From: Candidatus Bathyarchaeota archaeon
GTDB lineage: Archaea; Thermoproteota; Bathyarchaeia; Bathyarchaeales; Bathycorpusculaceae
DNA length: 64,000 nt
Assembly: GCA_963782525.1 (NCBI GenBank)
Contig: CAWAKC010000004.1
Coordinates: 117,528-181,527, forward strand
Reading direction: 5' to 3'
Part shown: positions 49,368-63,999 of the stretch, piece after piece
Position numbering within the stretch: position 1 is the first letter of the stretch
Layout of the letters: each line of letters opens with the position of its first letter
The notes under the pieces: model-generated
Databases searched by the model: none
Told to the model about the DNA's origin: nothing
What the model saw: the letters and a program-made list of their open reading frames with translations, nothing else
Translations under genes and position numbers: made by a program

Positions 49368-50930
49368 CTATCCAGAGGAAGAATTATCTTCATTAACTTC
49401 TTTGGTTTTTTGTTTGGGCTTGGATCGTTTTGGCAGGGCTGGAAAAATCATAGATGCTCTTGCTTGAATAATCTTCCTTGTTTCAAGCGTAACGTGAGAT
49501 TTTCTCATTAACTTTTCTATTTCCATTTTGCTTTCTTGTAATCTTTCGCTTAATTCTTGTTCAGAAATCTTCTCCTCGGATCTCAATCTGTGCGCTTCTT
49601 GCACATCCGAGGATATTTTTGTAAATTCTTCGTCGAAATCAGTTTCCTTAAAGGCTTCGGTTTCAGGTTGGGGCATTTTTTTCTTTACATATCTAAATAA
49701 GAGAGGTACCTGAATCATAATCGAGATAAAAGCTACTCCAAAGACCATCGTGTTTATCGTGCGCAAATCCGCTTGGGAAATGACTGCTGAAGTGGCAATT
49801 GTTGCTGCAAGCGCTATAGAAAGAGCACCTCTAACTCCACCTAGCATAGCAATATTGGCCCAGACCTTTGACATTTTCCCACCTACTTTTCTGAAGATGG
49901 CAAATATTGGGTAAACGGTAGCTGCCCTAGCTGCAGTGACGGCTATAAAAGCGGCAGCAATTAGAAAAATGGATTGAGGAAAAGTAGTGATGATGTTCGC
50001 TTGGAAGCCTATGAGGAGAAACGCTACTGAGTTACCTAAAAAGGCGGCTATTTGCCAGAAGATAGTCACTGCTTCTCTTGTTGCGGGTTCCATTGCGGTT
50101 CGAATTGTATAGTTGCCAAAGTATAAGCCTGCAACCGTTACTGCAATTAATCCAGATGCGCCAACACCAGACGCAAAAGCATAAGACCCATAAACCACCA
50201 CAATCGTCAGTATAGTTTCGGCGACTCTATCCTCCAGTAAGCTTGACAGGATTTCTCCGACAAAAGCAACACCCAAACCGATTAAAACTCCAACTCCAAG
50301 TGTATAGCCAAAACTCAGAAACGAACCCAGTACGCTGATTTGTTGTAGTCCTACGGAAGCGAGTATGATTGTGAAAATCACGATTGCCGTGGCATCGTTA
50401 AAGGCAGCTTCTGTATCTAGAAGTGTTGATAGTTTGGATGGAACTTTTACCCTCCGGAATACTTCTAATACGGTAACTACATCTGTGGGGGCGATAAGTG
50501 CAGCGAACAAGAAAGAGACATATGGGGAAAGACCGATAATTTTCCATAAAATTAACCCTCCAACTGCGGTTGCTATTAAAACGCCAACAGTTGCTAGCGC
50601 CAATGAGGGCTTGATTACCCCCCTCAGGTCATTTCCACGGATGTGAATCATTGCCTCAAATATCAGAGGAGGAACTACAAGACCCACGAATAGCCCACCA
50701 CCTCCTCCTTGAATTAACAAATCGTAAATTGATCGAATTTGACTAATTAGATTCTGCATAGGCGCCTGAAGAAAGCTTGATTCTATTGACAATAAAATGG
50801 CAACTACGGTGATTGAGACACCGAACGAAACTAAAATTAACGTATACGGAATTTTAAGACGGGTTGAAATGAGCGCAGCGACAAATGACACAAGCAGGAA
50901 TGCTGATACTACGAGCTCTATGCTGACCAT
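49368..50930 (-). CDS. Na+/H+ antiporter, CPA1 (NhaP) family
   Basis: PPLIFEA, LIAPTDVVTV, EAAFNDATAIV, GGVRGALSIALA. Confidence 0.93.
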   Translation of the reverse strand: MVSIELVVSAFLLVSFVAALISTRLKIPYTLILVSFGVSITVVAILLSIESSFLQAPMQNLISQIRSIYDLLIQGGGGGLFVGLVVPPLIFEAMIHIRGNDLRGVIKPSLALATVGVLIATAVGGLILWKIIGLSPYVSFLFAALIAPTDVVTVLEVFRRVKVPSKLSTLLDTEAAFNDATAIVIFTIILASVGLQQISVLGSFLSFGYTLGVGVLIGLGVAFVGEILSSLLEDRVAETILTIVVVYGSYAFASGVGASGLIAVTVAGLYFGNYTIRTAMEPATREAVTIFWQIAAFLGNSVAFLLIGFQANIITTFPQSIFLIAAAFIAVTAARAATVYPIFAIFRKVGGKMSKVWANIAMLGGVRGALSIALAATIATSAVISQADLRTINTMVFGVAFISIMIQVPLLFRYVKKKMPQPETEAFKETDFDEEFTKISSDVQEAHRLRSEEKISEQELSERLQESKMEIEKLMRKSHVTLETRKIIQARASMIFPALPKRSKPKQKTKEVNEDNSSSG

Positions 50931-51396: not shown

Positions 51397-52569
51397 TAAA
51401 GTAAATAATACTTTTGTAAAAAATTCGACAGAAGCGACTTTAACTGTTTGAGAATAAAAATGTTACCTTCTGTAAAGATCATGATATTGTGAAAGGGCGC
51501 CTATTTTATCGCAAATCTCCGCAATATTAAGTATAAATCAAACGTTTAAGTCAATTGTTTACTTCCATCCAATACAATTTTGATTAGTGGTTTAGTACTT
51601 TTATTGATTTCTTAGCCAACTATCTTTTAGTAAAACTAGTTTGCCTGACATGCTCATACTGATATCTCTATGATTCTCTTTCGGCCTATTGCAGGCGTTA
51701 CCAGCCAACAGAGGTTTTATGAGTTTTGCGTCATTTGTCACTGCTTTGACATGTGCCTAAATTTTTTTGATATCGGCCAACAGCTTTGAAGTGTTCTCTT
51801 CAAAAAGAACTCCAAATAATAACAATAGTTAGACCTAATAATAATTGACATTGTCTCAACTGCAACCATCTACAATTGGCTCATTGGCTATTTTTCGAAA
51901 GAAAGACATTTCAACGACTCAAAAAGCATAAAATTTGTGGTTTTCTCAGCTAATCCAAATTTATTCTATTTAGCAATTACATGCTTCACGTGGAAATAGT
52001 TAAAAATAGAGGCCAAATTGATTTTGTTGTTGTGTTGGGCAGTTCTTGCTTTTCCTTCTTTTCTGCAAAAGGATATAAACCCTCTCGGAGAAAGACTTTG
52101 TTGGAAGCATGCAGCCTTGGATTTAGTTTCAATGTTGTTCTCTGCGTTTCCAGTTGCTTTGCAGGTTGATACTTTTTTCACCAAATTGGGAGAAGTAATT
52201 TTCTTAGGTGCCTTGGGGGTTGGAATAATGACTATCCTGATTGCCCCATTTATTAAGATGATCAGGGATTCAGGCAGGAACGAGAATTCTCAAACAAAAA
52301 TAGCCCAATTGGAGAGAGACAATATCGAAGATGCCGTAGAAGAAGGTTTTGGACTGGTTAATTATTATATATTGCCTTCAGATTTAATTTATGAGGAAAC
52401 ATCTTAGGTTGAAACTAGGAATTTTAAAGTACGCGTATATAGAAGCACAAACACCAGACGAACATTTTATTATGAACTTAACGTCTTTTTCTTCAAAGGT
52501 CCAACATAAAATTGTATATTAGATTTATCACATGTACTTTAAACTGAAAATATTAGGAGAGTTATTTTA

Positions 52570-53943
52570 GTGATTCAGATTAAAAGTCGAGAAAAACTAA
52601 TAGAAAATGGAGAAACTTCAATAATTCGCAAACGTCGCGCCCTTGCTCTCGAGTGTCTTGAGCGAGCTGTTAACGCTGTTGATCCAAAACAGCTGATGGC
52701 GGCTAAGTTGAAAGTGGAAAATAACCATCTCTTAGCTGATGACTACATATTTGACTTGGGGAAATTCAAGCATGTTTATGTCGTAGGCGGAGGTAAAGCA
52801 GGTGGTAAAATGGCGCAAGCCATAGAAGAGATAATGGGCAAACGTGTAACCGCTGGAGTAGTAAACATTCCGTATGGTACGAGACAAAGAACCAAGGTAA
52901 TAGAGCTCAATGAGGCCAGTCATCCGGTTCCAAACGAAACAGGGGTAGATGGTACTTTTCGCATTATGGGAATTGCTGAACGTGCTGAAAAAAACGATTT
53001 AGTGATTTGTCTGATTTCAGGCGGCGGCTCAAGTCTCATGACCCTACCTCGAGAAGGTGTATCCCTCAATGATCTACAGGCACTAACAAATATGCTACTC
53101 AAAAGTGGAGCTGAAATAACCGAAATTAACGCTATCCGAAAACATATTTCAGCTTTCAAAGGCGGATGGCTAGCAAAGAAAGCCTATCCTGCAACGGTCC
53201 TAAACCTTATTCTTTCAGATGTTATGGGCGACCATCTGGATTCTATTGCCTCTGGTCCAACAGTTCCAGACTCATCAACCTTCAGAGATGCCAAAAAAAT
53301 CCTTGAAAAATATGGCGTATGGTTGAATGCCCCCGCTTCTATTCGCAAGATCTTTTTGAAAGGGGCAAAAGGATTACTTCAGGAAACACCCAAGTCAGAT
53401 GACGTAGTTTTTGAAAAGGTTTATAACTTGATAATTGGCAACAATCGAACTGCCAGCCAAGCTGCGGTTGAGTACTTGCATTCTAAAGGGCTTAACACAA
53501 TTCTATTGACTGATATATTGGATGGAGAAGCCAGGGTAGTGGGCAAAGCGTTAGCAAAGTTATCCAGCGATGGTTTTGCCTGTGACCTTTCTTCGTCTAA
53601 ACATCTAGGAATTGTTGCTGGGGGAGAGACCACTGTAACCGTCGCTGGAGGCGGGCTCGGGGGCAGAAATCAAGAGCTGTCATTGTCAGCAGCCTTAAAC
53701 CTCAAGGAATCGGAGGACTGTGTAATAGCTTCTTTCAGTACAGACGGCGTGGACGGACCAACAGATGCTGCAGGCGCAATCGTGGACGGTTACACGCTGA
53801 AGCGGGCAAAGCAGTTAGGGTTGGACCCCAAAAAATACCTTGAGAATAATGATTCCTACAATTTCTTCTTAAAACTTGGTGACCTCATCCATACCGGAGC
53901 GACAGGAACCAACGTTAATGACATATCTGTTATCGTGCGTTGA
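52570..53943 (+). CDS. Glycerate 2-kinase (MOFRL/TtuD/GckA family)
   Basis: GGGKAG, ASHPVP, LISGGGSSL, SDVMGD...IASGPT, GGETTV, GGRNQE, DGVDGPT, TGTNVND. Confidence 0.94.
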   Translation: MIQIKSREKLIENGETSIIRKRRALALECLERAVNAVDPKQLMAAKLKVENNHLLADDYIFDLGKFKHVYVVGGGKAGGKMAQAIEEIMGKRVTAGVVNIPYGTRQRTKVIELNEASHPVPNETGVDGTFRIMGIAERAEKNDLVICLISGGGSSLMTLPREGVSLNDLQALTNMLLKSGAEITEINAIRKHISAFKGGWLAKKAYPATVLNLILSDVMGDHLDSIASGPTVPDSSTFRDAKKILEKYGVWLNAPASIRKIFLKGAKGLLQETPKSDDVVFEKVYNLIIGNNRTASQAAVEYLHSKGLNTILLTDILDGEARVVGKALAKLSSDGFACDLSSSKHLGIVAGGETTVTVAGGGLGGRNQELSLSAALNLKESEDCVIASFSTDGVDGPTDAAGAIVDGYTLKRAKQLGLDPKKYLENNDSYNFFLKLGDLIHTGATGTNVNDISVIVR

Positions 53944-54039
53944 AAGAATATTTAAAATCTATTTGAGATGCTTTAGAGCTTTTGGCGACTGCACTTTTTG
54001 AGCGAATGATTTTTTAGAAATGAAAGCATAGTTTGCGGA

Positions 54040-55284
54040 GTGATAAAATTGAATAAAGCTGATTCCGCATTGTCCTTGGATGCCCGCGTATATCTGCACG
54101 ATATAGAAAAGGCAGATATCTTAGTGGGAATTCCATCTTTCAATAATATACTCACGGCAAGCTACGTTATTTCTCAAGTAACTAAGGGTTTGGACACTTA
54201 TTTCCCAAATTTTAAATCCGTAATTTTTGTTTCAGATGGCAACTCGAAGGACGATACATTGAACTCAGTGAAGAAGATTTATCTGCCATCCGAAGTGAAG
54301 CTAATTCCAGCCATTTATATGGGAATATCAGGCAAAGGGCGGGCTGTCAGAGCCATCTTTGAAGCAGCCAGCAACCTTAAAGTTAAAAGTGTTGCATTGG
54401 TGGATTCAGATTTGCGTAGCATAACCCCTGAGTGGATGCAGCTTTTAATTACTCCAACATTGATGGGAACTGGTTTTGTTGCACCCTACTACAACCGCCG
54501 CAAATATGACGGAACAATAACCAATTTTTTGTGTTATCCTGTCACATCAAGCCTGTTTGGCAAAGATGTTCGGCAGCCCATTGGTGGGGATTTTGGGCTT
54601 TCAATTGAGCTAGTTGAAGACCTCTTGGATTCGCCAATGTGGGAGCTTCCAGACGTTTGCCGCTTTGGAATTGACATCTTTGAAACTCAAACTGCCCTTG
54701 CTAAAGGCTATAAAGTTAAGCAGGCTCTGTTGGGAATAAAAAATCACGATGCAAAAGACCCATCCAGTCAACTGGCAGGTATGTTCCGTCAAGTTATGAA
54801 CATCATGTTTACTTGCATAGAACAGTATGAGCAGGTGTGGAAAGGAATAAAGGGTGTTTCCAATACAGAATTGGTCGGTGAAGCTCATTACGTTGAGACA
54901 CCTGAATCTATTCAGGTTTCCCTACCTGCAACTATAGATGCATTCAAAAGCAATTATGATCAATTCAATTCCATCTACAAATCATTTTTGGAACAAGACA
55001 TCCAAAACAAATTCGAACAAATCAAGCAAATTGAAACATCCACTGTCGACTTTCCCTCAGAAATCTGGGCAAAAACTGTTTATTCATTCATCGCCGAATT
55101 CCACAAAAACCCTGTGTGTGGCAGAGAGAAATTGATAGATGCTCTTAGGGTACTTTGGATTGGTCGGGTAGCTGTTTTCCTGAAAGAAACATGGGAACAA
55201 TCGCGAGAAGAAGCTGAAACAAAAATAATTGAAGAAGCAAAAGTATTTGAAAAATTCAAACATTATTTGATTGAGAAATACTAG
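54040..55284 (+). CDS. ggs: GT-A glycosyltransferase, probable one-step glucosylglycerate synthase
   Basis: VGIPSFNN, GKG, DSDLRSITPEW, YDGTITN, RQPIGGDFG, FGIDI, KNHDAKD; adjacent to glycerate kinase. Confidence 0.7.
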   Translation: MIKLNKADSALSLDARVYLHDIEKADILVGIPSFNNILTASYVISQVTKGLDTYFPNFKSVIFVSDGNSKDDTLNSVKKIYLPSEVKLIPAIYMGISGKGRAVRAIFEAASNLKVKSVALVDSDLRSITPEWMQLLITPTLMGTGFVAPYYNRRKYDGTITNFLCYPVTSSLFGKDVRQPIGGDFGLSIELVEDLLDSPMWELPDVCRFGIDIFETQTALAKGYKVKQALLGIKNHDAKDPSSQLAGMFRQVMNIMFTCIEQYEQVWKGIKGVSNTELVGEAHYVETPESIQVSLPATIDAFKSNYDQFNSIYKSFLEQDIQNKFEQIKQIETSTVDFPSEIWAKTVYSFIAEFHKNPVCGREKLIDALRVLWIGRVAVFLKETWEQSREEAETKIIEEAKVFEKFKHYLIEKY

Positions 55285-55660
55285 TATTGGCCGTTTTAGC
55301 AACCACTTATGTCGTCACTGTTCAAGATCTATTAATTATGAAAGACTTGGTTCGCCTGCTAAGACAATTTCTTTTAACGATTCTAAGGTCCTACATTGGT
55401 GGATGAGAGATGCTGTCGTGTAGCAACATGAAACGATGACAATATCTCGATATCTGATTTAAGTTCACTAAGAATATTATCTATCAGATCGCCATTTATA
55501 TTGACTAAAGAATTAGGATGGTCAGGTAGATGCATTGATTTCGTAAGTTAAGGATCGATATTTTTAAGACAGAAAATTAATCTAAGATAAAAATAGTTAA
55601 ATTGGCATAAGTATTGCTGAAATAAAATTAATATAGCTATTAGTTTGTATTAAGATATTA

Positions 55661-55957
55661 GTGAAATGCTTGTCATTGAAAGAAAGGGTCGCTTCTGGAG
55701 AAGAAGCCTTGAAAATAGCAGAAGCTATTAACTCAACAACCATGAGAATGCTTCAAGTTCTTGGAAAAGAACGTTTGGATGTTACAACCATCTCAAAAAG
55801 GCTTAGCTTGAGCGAAGCATACATAAGTGAACAGGTTCGAGTTCTTGAAGATCTAAAACTAATTAATGTAACATATGAACGGGGTAAACGAGGTATAAGA
55901 AAAATCTGCGAGTCCACTGTGGAGAAAGTTACATTAGTTATTAAAGAATCAATTTAA
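55661..55957 (+). CDS. ArsR-like winged-helix regulator
   Basis: AEAINSTT.RMLQVL...LDVTTISKRLSLSEAYISEQVRVLEDLKLI. Confidence 0.82.
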   Translation: MKCLSLKERVASGEEALKIAEAINSTTMRMLQVLGKERLDVTTISKRLSLSEAYISEQVRVLEDLKLINVTYERGKRGIRKICESTVEKVTLVIKESI

Positions 55958-56105
55958 ATCAGCAATATATGAAATTCCGAACGACCAAAAAATATGGCAA
56001 TGTAATGATTAGTAATGGCAAAAAATACGTCTCTTTCTTTGGACAGTTATTCTCCATTTGGGTCTCTTTGAGTCCAAGGATCGTTATTTTGGATAATTAT
56101 GAATT

Positions 56106-56261
56106 CTACTGGTAGTGAATGATCTTTTTTCCTACCTTACTTAAAATACCGTGAGGAAATCTGATCTTTCCTGTATAAACCTTTGCAATTGTTAAAATAT
56201 ATTTATTTGCAGGCAACTCTAAAACCATAAGTAGTGAACGATTTAAATTGTGAATAGCCAT
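56106..56261 (-). pseudogene. Possible AbrB-like remnant
   Basis: KYILTIAKVYTGKIRFP...KIIHYQ loosely resembles a swapped-hairpin regulator; short and weak. Confidence 0.2.
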
Positions 56262-56654
56262 AGCAAATACCGTGGTTGTCTAAAATGACAAAAAAACCAT
56301 CTAAATCTGAAACTCTTGAACAACACAAGAAAGCTTGCGAGAAAAAGAACTTAAAAAGAAACAATAAAAGCAAGGCGGAAATCCATCTATTTATTTAAAA
56401 AACAAGAAATAGTGAATCAAACCGCAATTCACTCTTTCTTTATCATATTAGGCTCTCTCTTTCTTTAGCACTTATAACAAATCAAAGAAAATGAATTGCC
56501 TTTACTTTACGATCGGGAAAAAGTAAATGTCTCTTTTTACATTCTGAAAACATAATTGCTTTACTCAAAGAAATATGCTCAATTATATAAATTCTTCACT
56601 GAAGCGGACAGATAGTATTTAATTCACCATAGGGAATGGAGAAAGTTCTTGATT

Positions 56655-57431
56655 TTATGAAATGCATGAACCAAACTTGTTGATGAGGTAAATTATTTTC
56701 TCCCATTCTGTTTGAATCTCTTCGGATTTGTTAATGAAAAAAGGATAATCTGTCGCCTCTAACATTTCAATGTCATTGGATTGATTTCCTACACCCACTG
56801 TTCTTATTTTTTTGTATTTCGTGGAAAATAGTTCCTTAAGCCTCAATACTGCTTTTCCCTTATTGTGATTTCCCATTAAATGGTAGTATTTTCCGCCAAT
56901 TGTAAAATGCAATTTTTCCTTTAGTATAGCATTTATGATTTCAGCTTCACAATGTTTTTTAAAACGAAACGGTTCCGTGTATTCTCTCTCCTTTGCCAAT
57001 TCTGCAAGCTCGATTGTTAATCCAGTTTCTTCTGCGATTTCCTCAGTAGTCATGTCCCCAAATCCTTTTATATCCTTGAGACATGATTTCCTAATTCTTT
57101 CAAATTTCTTTCTAATTGAAGAATACGCAATCCCTAATTCAATAATATCATATCGGCTTGTTTGTTTAGTCCAAAAATGCCCTATCTTGAAATAACCTGA
57201 TGGCACAAAAATAGCTGCGCCGTTTTCAGAAATGAATGGATCATTTAAACCCATGATCTTTCTAAAATATTCAATCTCAAGCCTTGTCTTACTGCTGCAA
57301 AGTATAATTGGAATGTTTAAGGTCTTTAACTGAGATATTGCCGGACGTAAAAGCTCAAAGCTATAGTTTTCATCCAAAAGTGTTCCATCAAGATCAGTAA
57401 AAACAATTGTTCGCTCGGTTTCAGTGTTCAA
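56655..57431 (-). CDS. gpgP: Glucosyl/mannosyl-3-phosphoglycerate phosphatase (HAD IIB)
   Basis: FTDLDGTLL, CSSKT, SENG, REYTEPF, GGKYYHL, KGKA, GNQSND; overlaps the gpgS stop. Confidence 0.9.
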   Translation of the reverse strand: MNTETERTIVFTDLDGTLLDENYSFELLRPAISQLKTLNIPIILCSSKTRLEIEYFRKIMGLNDPFISENGAAIFVPSGYFKIGHFWTKQTSRYDIIELGIAYSSIRKKFERIRKSCLKDIKGFGDMTTEEIAEETGLTIELAELAKEREYTEPFRFKKHCEAEIINAILKEKLHFTIGGKYYHLMGNHNKGKAVLRLKELFSTKYKKIRTVGVGNQSNDIEMLEATDYPFFINKSEEIQTEWEKIIYLINKFGSCIS

Positions 57432-58617
57432 TAGCTGCTCGTCTCAGTTTTTCTCTTGCATCAGGCATAGCAGAAATCGTTCGCATCCAATCAGGTAACT
57501 GTGTACTTGTCGGATTTTCTAGATAGCGTTTTCCGGCACGTATTATAATATCCGATAAGGCATCAACGTTTGTTTCCTCTTCATGTCTGTCAAAATCTAG
57601 TGCGTTGCAGAGGGCATCAGCATAGTATTGTCTTATTCTATCTTGAGCAAATCGTCTATAAGTGACTTGAAGACTCAATAAAAATGCCTCTGACACATCT
57701 ATTCCTTCGGTTTCCGTCAAGGTTCTGAGCAAAGTAATTAAAGCATCATCAGCAGTTCTCAACAATGCATTGTTAATCATTTCTTTATGTTTGTGATCAT
57801 AAAAGCCAAGGTCAACTTCACAAATACGTTTGTTTGAAACATTTCTATAAAGTTCCGATAGAGTCCCAATTTCCAGACCCCAATCTCCTGGCATCCTCAA
57901 GTTCAAAGCTAAATCGCTGTAAATAGCAATTTCGCCCGAAAGAGGGTATCTAAAGGAATGCAGATACCTAATGAACGTCGAACTATGGTTGAGTTTTTTT
58001 TGCAGAGCATCCAACAAAGGATTAATGAACAGTCTGTATATTCGGCCATACATTTTTTTATTTTCAAGATTGACTCGAGCATAGTATCCTTTGGAAAAGA
58101 AAAAATCCATTTTTGGCTCAATTACAGTGTAGAGAAGTTTGGTAGGAAGCATCCCTGAGTAAGAAATAATATCAGCATCATGAACCGCGAAGGCATAGAG
58201 TTCAAGTGATGCGATTCCGATTGCAATCCAAAGATCTTTGCCCTTACCATTGGATTTTGTTACATCTAGGCCTTTCCCTTTTAACTCCTCTAGAATGGTT
58301 TTTACTTCAGGTTTGTTGCACCATATAATCTCGTAAGGAATTTCAAAATTGGAAAAAAGTCGAGTTGCTTTTTCATAATCATATTCGTCATTTGCGGAAA
58401 GGGCTATGAAGACTTTGCTCAAATAGTTGCATTCATTTAGTCCTTTGACAATATTTTTCAGCCCTGGACCCTCAAGGTCATTTCTGTGTAATGGAATTAT
58501 TACTCCTGAAGGATATTTTTTACTTAATTCGTTCATTCTTGACTGTAAAGTATTAATATTTATTGAAAAATCATGAATCCTTGTAATTCTTCCTTGTTCA
58601 AGGTCCACATAGTCCAC
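57421..58617 (-). CDS. gpgS: Glucosyl-3-phosphoglycerate synthase (Methanococcoides/Persephonella type)
   Basis: ITRIHDF, GKGKDLW, HDADI, KGYYARV, GRIYRLF..PL, FRYPLSGE, DWGLEIG, YDHKH. Confidence 0.85.
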   Translation of the reverse strand: MDYVDLEQGRITRIHDFSININTLQSRMNELSKKYPSGVIIPLHRNDLEGPGLKNIVKGLNECNYLSKVFIALSANDEYDYEKATRLFSNFEIPYEIIWCNKPEVKTILEELKGKGLDVTKSNGKGKDLWIAIGIASLELYAFAVHDADIISYSGMLPTKLLYTVIEPKMDFFFSKGYYARVNLENKKMYGRIYRLFINPLLDALQKKLNHSSTFIRYLHSFRYPLSGEIAIYSDLALNLRMPGDWGLEIGTLSELYRNVSNKRICEVDLGFYDHKHKEMINNALLRTADDALITLLRTLTETEGIDVSEAFLLSLQVTYRRFAQDRIRQYYADALCNALDFDRHEEETNVDALSDIIIRAGKRYLENPTSTQLPDWMRTISAMPDAREKLRRAAIEH

Positions 58618-58677
58618 ACTCGATTAATTTAGATAAGAAATGATAAATAAATATTTATAAGCATTTACCAATAATTA

Positions 58678-58958
58678 TTGATAAATGCTTATTTAAAAGA
58701 AGAAAAAATCGAGGTCTTGAAAAACGGTGAACTTTACGGAAACAATACAAAACCTTCTCCAAACAACCCCGGTTACAAGCGAAATGGAGGGATGAAACTC
58801 CGAGAAGATGGAAAGACACAAGAGCGATAATTCGCCCCCTGAGAATCATTTTCAAGAATGAAACAGAATCAAAAAAATTTTACGTGTATACAAAGAAACC
58901 TGATGCAGATATTTACGGCGGCGACAATGAGATCGTTCTTAAAATCCTCCAGAAATAA
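58678..58958 (+). pseudogene. Possible ~93-aa protein with a single frameshift
   Basis: TTG-INAYLKEEKIEVLKNGELY, then after a frame change near 58737 RKQYKTFSKQPRLQAKWRDE...GGDNEIVLKILQK*. Confidence 0.35.
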
Positions 58959-59058
58959 TTTGTCCACTCAGTGAATTACTCAATGGCTACACAAGGAACT
59001 CGCGATAAGTTAAAGTGTTTATTGCTCTGTTGGTGTGATTGATGATTGAGGACTGAGT

Positions 59059-59526
59059 ATGGCTCAAACAAGTGTAGTTTTGGAAATTGAGGATCCCCAT
59101 TTTACAATTAGGCTCACAGAGGACCTCCTCAAAATTGACTTGAAAGGAAGCTTCAAGAATGAAATCAACGAAGCGCTCGAAAATGAGCCTGTTCTCAAGG
59201 AAACGATTGGCAGGGTACTTGGCATATTTGTTCCGCTGCATATTCGAGTAAGCGATATAGATTCGGTGCATATAGATGAGATCGGAAAAATCAAAGTAGA
59301 ACTTACTCATCACCGCAGTATTGTAATTCCGCTTGAACGAAAGGAAGATTCCGAGAAACTCGTTGAAAAATTGAATCAATTGGTTTCAAAAGCTGAAACG
59401 GAGAAAATCCAAGAAATTAAAGTAAAGCGAAGAGTTGAAAAGGAAAAAAACCAAGTAAAACAATTGAGAAACAGAGCTAAAAGAAAACAGTATCGCAAGC
59501 GCTCGGATGCAGAACGAAGAGTATAA
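59059..59526 (+). CDS. Hypothetical protein with basic C-terminal tail
   Basis: 155-aa ATG ORF with protein-like composition. Confidence 0.7.
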   Translation: MAQTSVVLEIEDPHFTIRLTEDLLKIDLKGSFKNEINEALENEPVLKETIGRVLGIFVPLHIRVSDIDSVHIDEIGKIKVELTHHRSIVIPLERKEDSEKLVEKLNQLVSKAETEKIQEIKVKRRVEKEKNQVKQLRNRAKRKQYRKRSDAERRV

Positions 59527-60854: not shown

Positions 60855-61280
60855 ATGAAGATTATGCACACAGTTAAAGAGATAATGAAACCTGTTGTCA
60901 ATATTGGTCCGAATCAGACCGTCTTGGAAGCTGCTAACCTCATGAAGGTGTCTGATAGAGGCAGTTTGCTGATTGTTGATGGCGAAATTACCGTTGGCAT
61001 CATAACCGCGAGAGATCTAGTTTTAAGAGTCATCGCAGAAAACCTGCCTCACACTACTCCGGTTTCAGAGGTCATGTCCTCGCCTCTTATAACAATCAAC
61101 GCTAAGGTTACCCTGAAGAAAGCTGCCAAAATTATGGGCGAACATAGAATAAGACGGCTTCCAGTCACCGAGGGCGGCGGAGTGACAGGAATTCTAATTG
61201 CCTCTGACGTGTTGCGCCAATTGTCTAACAAGACTTTAGCAGAGGATATCTGGGACGCCCTTGTTGTAGAGCATCAGTAG
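60855..61280 (+). CDS. Tandem CBS domain protein
   Basis: VKEIMKP, GIITARDL, VSEVMSSP, IRRLPV. Confidence 0.93.
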   Translation: MKIMHTVKEIMKPVVNIGPNQTVLEAANLMKVSDRGSLLIVDGEITVGIITARDLVLRVIAENLPHTTPVSEVMSSPLITINAKVTLKKAAKIMGEHRIRRLPVTEGGGVTGILIASDVLRQLSNKTLAEDIWDALVVEHQ

Positions 61281-61854: not shown

Positions 61855-63188
61855 TTAGTTTATTGTGCTGGGTTTTGTCTCTTGTTCTCCAAGTTCTTCA
61901 GCAGTGTAGTCTCTAATTATTCCATGTATGCCTTTGCTTATTATCCACATAAAGACATATGATAATGCAAAAACTGTACCAAGAACTACAGGTAAAGCCA
62001 ATAGTTGCAGCCCAAGTTGATGCAAGGCTTGCATGCCACCACCGAATAATAGACCATTTGGTAGACCAGAGCCCCCTCCAAAAGAAGCGAATGAATACTG
62101 TGCAAAGAAAGCCACCATAATAAAGCCAAATATGCCGCCCAGAAAGTGCCCGGAAAAAGACCAACTGGATCAGTAAACCATTTGGCTCTTTGAAATAATT
62201 TCTCACCTAGAAGGAATATAATTGAACCTAATATTCCAAGAATTACTGCGCTACCTGGACCAACGTAACCGGCAACGGGGGTGATTACGATTAAACCGAT
62301 GAGTATACCGTTTGCAGCATACATTATACTTGGCAGTTTCCTTTTCTCAAGAAACTTGAAAAACATAGTAAATAAGAAACCAGTTGAAGCAGCCAAGAAA
62401 GTGATCAATACCACAATGTAGGATTGGATATTTAGCGCTAATGTGCTTCCTGGGTTGAAACCAAACCAGCCAAGCCAAAGCAGAAGAATTGACAAAGATA
62501 ACCAAGGCGTGTTTGGCTTAGCCTGTATCTGCGGGCTTTCTCTGAATCCTTTCTTTTTTTCCTCTTGCCAGACTCTTAAAACGATTGCTAAACCTGCTGC
62601 TCCTGCAGCTCCATGAACAACCAATCCACCTGCAAAATCTCTTACACCCATAACAAAGAGCCAGCCTTGCGGATTCCAAATCCAAGCTGCTGGCAATGCC
62701 CAAATGAGAATAAAGTAGGGAATTGAAAAAAGAAAGAAGGCTTCCAGCTTCATTTTCTTCAAAACAATTACGCCAACCAACGCAAGTGTTACAGTCGCAA
62801 ATGCGGTTTCAAAGAAAAAATAAGATGGAAGAGTAACTAGATTGTTAAAATACTGTGGACCCATTGACCACCAAACTTGAGTGAAAATATCGGCGGAATT
62901 GCTCTGAAAACCTCCCATGAACGGGAAATTATAAAGTGGATTACCTATCAAGCCCCTGCCTATTGTCGGTGCAAAGGCAACGCTGAAACCAATTAATGCC
63001 ATGAAAAAAAAGCCTGAGCACGATATCATAATGTTCTTTAGTAATGCTCTATTGGAACTCCTTCCAAGTTCGCCTCTCTCAAGTATTCCAACTGAGATAG
63101 TCATGATGAAAACAAGGACCCCGCATATCAAAACCCAAAGATTATTGAAAAGATTTTCTGCAGGTAGAGCTGACATCTTGACATCCAT
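61855..63188 (-). pseudogene. amt: Ammonium transporter (Amt) with -1 frameshift near 62150
   Basis: DFAGGLVVHG and WLGWFGFNPGS; after DPVGLFPG, restoring one G in the G-run gives HFLGGIFGFIMVAFF..., continuing as the 61855-62118 ORF. Confidence 0.88.
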
Positions 63189-63207: not shown

Positions 63208-63999
63208 CTAAAGTAGTACCAATGCAAAATGATGCATTAACTGCATAAGCACTGGAGCGCCGCTACTTGTTAAAATAGCTATTTGCGCTGGAGCTATTGA
63301 AGGAAAAACGTGTGCGCCCAATTCTATAAGCCAAGCAGTGAACACAAACGGACCTGTTAAGGTTGGCAGGTTGAAACGTCCTGTTATTGTTCCCATGAAT
63401 GCTGTCACTACTGTTGAGAAAGCCGTGGCGAAAAGCATGACTAAGAAATTAATTGGCGCTCCATTGAAGGGACTTATAGGCCAAAGGAACCCAACAAAGA
63501 CACCCATGACAGCCAAGGCTGTTAAGGTTCCGTTAAAACCGTACAGCCCAATTAGGACAGATGATCTGTCAGCTTTGAAAGCAATCGCGGCTAATGTTGC
63601 AGAAAGAGTGCCTATGAATGCTGTGATTCCAGCGAAGTATATTGGATATTGCACTGGGAACCCATATGGGTTTAATGGAATGGTGGCGACAGTTAGTCCG
63701 ATGAAAATTAAAACGCCTGTCTTCCAGTTTTCCTGGAAGAATACTTGAGCGATGCCTGTAAAGATCAATTTTACAAATCCGCTTGCTGTGAATTCACTTA
63801 ATCGCAATGGCTCTTTTTTCTCTGTGTCTTGAGGATTTTTGAGTAATTTGCTTCTTTGTTTTGGGGCAGGCGGAGGACCAGACAATTTCATGCCGGAAAA
63901 CTTTTTAGCTGCAAACAGGAAAATCCAGGTTGTTAATACAAACGCTGAAGTTTCCACAGGCAGACCAAACATTTTAGTGAACCAAATTAGCGAAGCAGT
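63208..63999 (-). CDS. Urea transporter (UT family), 5'-truncated by window edge
   Basis: FGLPVETSAFVLTTW, GIAQVFFQEN, GLYGFNG, LPTLTGPFVFTAW; frame stays open to the window end, so ATG 63972 is internal. Confidence 0.88.
   Translation of the reverse strand, partial: TASLIWFTKMFGLPVETSAFVLTTWIFLFAAKKFSGMKLSGPPPAPKQRSKLLKNPQDTEKKEPLRLSEFTASGFVKLIFTGIAQVFFQENWKTGVLIFIGLTVATIPLNPYGFPVQYPIYFAGITAFIGTLSATLAAIAFKADRSSVLIGLYGFNGTLTALAVMGVFVGFLWPISPFNGAPINFLVMLFATAFSTVVTAFMGTITGRFNLPTLTGPFVFTAWLIELGAHVFPSIAPAQIAILTSSGAPVLMQLMHHFALVLL

Follow-up and report, generated by a model that had tools for sequence, protein, structure and literature searches.

The stretch of DNA analysed here (the window: 64,000 nucleotides of a Candidatus Bathyarchaeota archaeon, assembly GCA_963782525.1, contig CAWAKC010000004.1) harbors at 52570-58617 four genes resembling those of glucosylglycerate (GG) metabolism together with a gene for an ArsR-like protein. 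The coordinates of all five open reading frames (ORFs) agree exactly with those of an earlier note on this DNA, which had placed a glycerate kinase gene and a gene similar to that of the glucosylglycerate synthase Ggs on the forward strand, gpgS and gpgP on the reverse strand and the ArsR-like gene between them. The enzyme genes are arranged as two convergent pairs separated by a 1.37-kb spacer that holds the ArsR-like gene. In one pair the kinase gene is located 96 nt upstream of ggs, and the other, probably a single operon, shows an 11-nt overlap of gpgS with gpgP. Each of the five genes is present in a single copy in the 2.87-Mb genome (12 contigs, 95.8% complete). As the same genes are found grouped in about ten other genomes of the genus, and also in Persephonella and its family, their proximity is not a matter of chance.

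Features of the locus, in window coordinates
Feature	Position	Strand	Size and basis
Glycerate kinase (MOFRL, class II; glycerate 2-kinase type)	52570..53943	+	457 aa; DUF4147 + MOFRL, PDB matches
Ggs-like glucosylglycerate synthase, one-step route	54040..55284	+	414 aa; GT-A domain + C-terminal helical domain
ArsR-like winged-helix regulator, putative	55661..55957	+	98 aa; sub-cut-off HTH matches
GpgP, glucosyl-3-phosphoglycerate phosphatase (MPGP-family HAD-IIB)	56655..57431	-	258 aa; TIGR01486
GpgS, glucosyl-3-phosphoglycerate synthase (Methanococcoides/Persephonella type)	57421..58617	-	398 aa; NF040724
Near-perfect palindrome, two inverted TAAATGCTTAT motifs	58657..58692		36 bp; candidate operator or back-to-back promoter

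Enzymes of the locus

The glycosyltransferase encoded next to the kinase gives only weak direct family matches, namely to MGS_GT (Pfam, 18 bits with a cut-off of 27) and to mycobacterial GpgS. Its relationship becomes apparent from the alignment with a protein named by NCBI 'glucosylglycerate synthase Ggs [Persephonella]', with 43% identity and 63% positives over 406 aa (E 5e-113), in which residues 9-412 match residues 12-414 and which thus amounts to full-length homology. The Persephonella protein was recovered by a search that started from an Aquificales relative. More than 7,800 homologues were found, many of them called 'glucosylglycerate synthase' by JGI. A profile of this family matches the mannosylglycerate synthase (MGS) of Rhodothermus marinus at 6.7e-16, the C-terminal helical domain included, and GT81 GpgS at 1.3e-15. 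The same relatives are recovered at the level of the fold: the best match of an alignment-based AlphaFold2 model (pLDDT 95; a single-sequence model with pLDDT 41 was discarded) is R. marinus MGS, across the two domains (TM 0.64-0.74), with GpgS in second place.

In the alignment with MGS, the residues Lys99, Asp122/Asp124 (of an Asp-Ser-Asp motif), Ile160/Thr161, Ile181 (within a loop Pro-Ile-Gly-Gly-Asp, PIGGD, 180-184), Asp212 and His236 correspond to Lys76, Asp100/Asp102, Ile138/Thr139, the Leu163 loop, Asp192 and His217, and all of them are invariant in the close family. In MGS and GpgS these positions serve the binding of the metal, of the donor and, in the case of Ile138/Thr139, of the glycerate carboxylate (PMC2581804). 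Full-length homology, a GT-A apparatus including the carboxylate site, and the genomic association expected of a P. marina-type Ggs (EC 2.4.1.268) are thus all present, and by the criteria of sequence and structure the enzyme is a Ggs, with the corresponding predicted activity.

GpgS matches the Methanosarcinales model NF040724 (GpgS_Meth) over almost the entire length of the model (positions 2-397 of 402, E 1.9e-167) with a score of 557.2 bits, which lies under the 700-bit equivalog cut-off and therefore marks it as a divergent branch. Its relatives at 65-88% identity are named GpgS by both NCBI and JGI. The motifs GKG (124-126), DAD (147-149, the DXD motif) and PLSGE (225-229) are found, the last of which has been linked to discrimination against mannose (PMC2581804). 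GpgP exceeds the cut-off of TIGR01486 for the MPGP-family HAD-IIB phosphatases (222.2 bits, cut-off 164.75), contains the HAD motifs DLDGT (13-17) and GNQSND (215-220), and matches the solved mannosyl-3-phosphoglycerate phosphatases 1wzc (9.5e-38) and 3ztw (1.6e-34). The kinase carries both Pfam domains above cut-off, DUF4147 with 280 bits (1.7e-83) and MOFRL with 136 bits (5.4e-40), and matches the putative glycerate kinase of T. maritima (PDB code 2b8n, 1.7e-99) and the P. horikoshii structure 1x3l (1.4e-97). From this domain pair and the similarity to solved members it is predicted to be a MOFRL (class II) glycerate 2-kinase.

Distribution and coupling of Ggs to the kinase

About 24 of 301 sampled genomes of the class (~8%), spread over about ten families, encode strong Ggs homologues, while GpgS of the Methanococcoides type was detected in nine (3%), which belong to two genera, both of the window's family; around 15 Bathyarchaeia genomes of this sample have Ggs and lack any GpgS. 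The earlier proposal that Bathyarchaeia make GG can therefore be upheld for a minority of them and not for the class as a whole. The window's genus is represented by 30 further genomes, of which 13 encode Ggs, 14 GpgS and 14 the kinase. Of the 13 with Ggs, 12 also encode GpgS, in most cases no more than 3 kb away. The kinase is found in all 13 and in only one of the 17 Ggs-negative genomes, and the two genomes that have GpgS only (G441 and G442) are devoid of it. Two kinase lineages can be distinguished in the genus, one 72-76% identical to the window's enzyme and adjoining Ggs, the other 55-59% identical and located elsewhere; the latter is widespread in the family (89 of 121 genomes), and kinase presence within the genus nevertheless follows Ggs.

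Within 67 bacterial Ggs loci, GpgS is encoded in the flanks of 19 and the kinase in six, counts that are lower bounds because many of the contigs are short. In five of these six, from several phyla, the kinase gene is immediately adjacent to ggs, and in the sixth it is about 2 kb away. Taken together, this shows a conserved association of glycerate kinase with Ggs in archaea as well as in bacteria. A quick maximum-likelihood tree of 106 Ggs sequences, in which the archaea are represented by Bathyarchaeia, splits 35 archaeal from 71 bacterial rows with an SH-aLRT support of 100% (the root was not inferred), and judging from these sequences there is no sign of a recent transfer from bacteria to archaea.

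Several irregularities were observed among the relatives. In four related loci the kinase gene or gpgS of the cluster is broken by frameshifts or stops, which could reflect decay or errors of long-read assembly. Another relative (G456) carries two Ggs paralogues at a distance of 4 kb, and GpgS is present twice in G442. In three class relatives of one family (f9), Ggs adjoins a gene which matches only the GpgS core (32-33% identity, residues ~91-275) and which may encode a short GT81 enzyme of the actinobacterial type, i.e. a different two-step partner.

Putative control region and surroundings

The 98-aa protein encoded in the spacer scores 17 bits on HTH_5 (cut-off 22) and 21.3 bits on HTH_20 (cut-off 27) of Pfam, and also stays below the cut-off of the NCBIfam ArsR/SmtB model (E 3.9e-6). 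Its neighbours in a language-model protein atlas are ArsR clusters of Bathyarchaeota, with scores of 0.97-0.98. Homologues with 56-86% identity adjoin Ggs in three Bathyarchaeia genomes, in three different arrangements. The palindrome immediately precedes the TATA-like box of gpgS and lies between this gene and a divergent ORF (59059-59526). The 11-mer core of its TAAATGCTTAT motif occurs only seven times in the genome, and in two relatives carrying the winged-helix gene (L005 and L088) the core is likewise found upstream of gpgS and beside that gene. The palindrome could be either a dimeric operator or a pair of back-to-back BRE/TATA promoters. A scan for sigma-70 promoters and terminators, a model unsuited to archaea, yielded no enrichment over shuffled sequences.

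The spacer contains in addition a stretch of 240 nt (56225-56461) with 78% identity to the DNA between gpgS and ggs in L005 and L088, part of which is also present about 1.2 kb upstream of one of the gpgS copies in G442. Its coding content is a Lys-rich ORF of about 40 aa (LEQHKKAQREKDLKKKQ...), which many genomes of the genus conserve; in the window the reading frame is shifted with respect to the other copies, and the C-terminus differs. The element has no Rfam match, as is the case for the whole region 51900-59500, and its predicted RNA fold is not significant (z -0.9 and -1.5); a small ORF is the preferred reading, and a structured RNA was rejected.

The locus is surrounded by genes for ion and nitrogen uptake, to which a functional link may or may not exist: a Na+/H+ exchanger (49368-50930), a CBS-pair protein (60855-61280), an Amt ammonium transporter (61986-63188) and a urea transporter of the UT family (63208-63972). 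In one of the bacterial loci an NHE-like gene comes after gpgS. A 135-aa protein encoded at 60296-60703 matches the Pfam family DCD (Development and Cell Death; 34.6 bits, cut-off 27.8), a domain mostly discussed for plants. Pieces of 151-311 nt with 100% identity to the locus were found at low depth in DNA contigs of four sequencing runs of a single study, one from freshwater sediment and three from soil, which weakly hints at a habitat in soil or freshwater sediment; among RNA data no holder of the locus was listed.

Interpretation and comparison with known systems

We consider it likely that the four-enzyme GG module of Persephonella marina has an archaeal copy in this locus. The observations comprise sequence homology, the conservation of the catalytic residues, the fold, and the order and co-occurrence of the genes; from them we infer the substrates, product, regulation and physiological role of the locus. 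GpgS would condense NDP-glucose with 3-phosphoglycerate and GpgP would subsequently strip off the phosphate to give GG, while with Ggs a single reaction of NDP-glucose and free D-glycerate would yield GG. By phosphorylating free glycerate the MOFRL kinase would link the glycerate pool to glycolysis, and the suggestion made in the earlier note, that it balances this pool, would agree with the strong co-occurrence and adjacency of kinase and Ggs. The ArsR-like protein, together with the palindrome at the gpgS promoter, would probably provide local control. The product, a nitrogen-free anionic solute, may protect a soil or freshwater-sediment organism against osmotic, drying or nitrogen stress. 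A supply of the NDP-glucose donor is plausible, the genome encoding sugar-1-phosphate nucleotidylyltransferases of the RmlA-long, archaeal GlmU, GalU-like and GlgC-like types. Neither a GG phosphorylase (GH13_18, TIGR03852) nor a GH63-type GG hydrolase was found in the 95.8%-complete genome, which leaves it without any known GG sink. One genome match to the GH63-like family PF22422 was rejected as a GG hydrolase, since it is an archaeal glycogen-debranching enzyme.

A number of points weigh against this assignment. The characterised enzymes are only 36-43% identical to the proteins of the locus, and several of the latter fall short of the most specific models: GpgS as described above, GpgP on the MpgP equivalog TIGR02461 (227.5, cut-off 244.35) and the kinase on the lineage-specific NCBIfam equivalogs (257, cut-off 550). 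The ArsR assignment does not reach the Pfam thresholds, and the winged-helix gene is absent from the four closest loci. The genomes used for co-occurrence are related to one another, and the counts therefore overstate their independence. Finally, the free D-glycerate required by Ggs is not accounted for by the identified genes, and the co-expression of a kinase and a synthase that both consume glycerate makes no obvious sense for pure synthesis.

A division of labour, which we regard as unlikely, is the most probable of the alternatives. Here GpgS and GpgP would carry out irreversible synthesis, and Ggs would operate in reverse (GG + NDP -> NDP-glucose + glycerate), the kinase pulling the reaction via 2-phosphoglycerate, so that the two together would mobilise GG. 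The reversible trehalose synthase TreT sets a precedent for such an NDP-glucose-forming reversal. If true, it would explain at once the coexistence of two 'synthetic' routes, the kinase tracking Ggs and not GpgS, and the lack of a known hydrolase or phosphorylase. It is also in line with the situation in bacteria, where glycerate kinase genes are typical companions of GG phosphorylase (GH13_18), a GG-degrading enzyme (Franceus et al. 2017, reviewed in PMC7178133). However, the reaction would be thermodynamically uphill in the direction of NDP-glucose unless strongly pulled, and the Ggs of P. marina has reportedly been characterised as a synthase. Moreover, no GpgS is encoded nearby in 48 of the 67 bacterial loci, and in the Bathyarchaeia genomes with Ggs and no GpgS, Ggs is left as the sole GG route; such genomes argue against reversal as its general role.

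More doubtful still is the possibility that the Ggs-like enzyme forms a glycoside other than GG, for example mannosylglycerate, or accepts a different small hydroxy acid, the locus then giving rise to two solutes. This would be compatible with the moderate 43% identity to the characterised enzyme, with the separate, fully supported clade of the archaeal proteins, with a mannose-1-phosphate guanylyltransferase-like gene in the genome, and with the donor loop PIGGD, which has the Gly-Gly of the mannose-using MGS (PLGGE) instead of the PLSGE of GpgS. Yet the sequence RQPIGGDFG is identical in the glucose-using Ggs of P. marina, and the loop is hence no predictor of mannose use in this family. The Ile160/Thr161 pair that would bind the carboxylate is invariant, the linkage to gpgS, gpgP and the kinase gene mirrors the Persephonella GG cluster, and mannosyl-3-phosphoglycerate synthase (MpgS, PF09488) is absent from the genome. 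The earlier note had left the choice between glucosyl- and mannosylglycerate; the PLSGE motif of GpgS and the shared loop of Ggs favor the former and make the latter less likely. It is very improbable that GG serves as a glycan primer, as in the mycobacterial methylglucose lipopolysaccharide, rather than as a free solute: GpgS does have a primer role in mycobacteria (PMC2581804, PMC2674218), but the GpgS of the window is of the Methanococcoides and not of the short actinobacterial type, further glycosyl-, methyl- or acyltransferase genes are missing from the locus, and the gene set is that of the Persephonella osmolyte cluster.

The GG module remains the preferred interpretation. The names of the individual genes are not new, as they are already assigned by public pipelines (JGI, NCBI). 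Full-text searches found no paper that ties GG to Bathyarchaeia, and the earlier note was not aware of one either; a gain of Ggs in Thermoprofundales is noted in one paper. Knowledge of stress handling is very scarce for Bathyarchaeia, which rank among the most abundant archaea of sediments and soils. A complete module of the Persephonella type leads to a testable prediction, namely of a nitrogen-free, anionic compatible solute which would suit nitrogen-poor or drying habitats. The coupling of Ggs and kinase is the most interesting part, and it could reveal how cells recover GG.

Four known systems are closest to the locus. With the bacterial GG phosphorylase loci it shares the clustering of a glycerate kinase gene with GG genes (those for GpgS and GpgP), but it has no phosphorylase. 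R. marinus MGS (GT78; PDB codes 2bo4, 2y4j-m) resembles Ggs in its fold, the DXD motif, the lysine, the histidine metal ligand and the Ile/Thr carboxylate site, and likewise acts in one step on free glycerate. In contrast to Ggs it uses GDP-mannose, and the sequence identity is only 14-16%. GpgS and GpgP of Methanococcoides burtonii have reportedly been described (Costa et al. 2006); they represent an archaeal two-step route, to which the window corresponds in the end-to-end match of GpgS and in a GpgP of the MPGP family of HAD phosphatases, whereas its GpgS belongs to a divergent branch. To our knowledge no Ggs has been reported from M. burtonii.

The closest counterpart is the GG cluster of P. 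marina EX-H1 (Costa et al. 2007 and Fernandes et al. 2007, J Bacteriol, as relayed in part by PMC3736172). In a Persephonella genome encoding a Ggs that is 100% identical to the NCBI-named one, gpgP, the kinase gene, ggs and gpgS are contiguous on one strand, and the order kinase-ggs-gpgS recurs in four more genomes of the family. The four homologues are 43% (GpgP), 40% (MOFRL kinase), 43% (Ggs) and 36% (GpgS) identical to those of the window, which bears out the gene identities and the parallel with Persephonella drawn in the earlier note. Its view of both GG routes and a kinase combined in one locus stands as well, except that the kinase, being part of the contiguous string in Persephonella, belongs to the known module and is no archaeal addition. 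The differences concern the arrangement, i.e. two convergent pairs with the ArsR-like gene in between as opposed to a single co-linear string, the position of the archaeal Ggs in a separate clade, and the hosts, a mesophilic archaeon of soil or sediment and a marine thermophilic bacterium. Both systems share the same four homologous enzymes, both routes to GG in one locus and a kinase gene directly upstream of ggs, and on the basis of this common gene set the Bathyarchaeia locus is likely to extend a known system by a new archaeal member.

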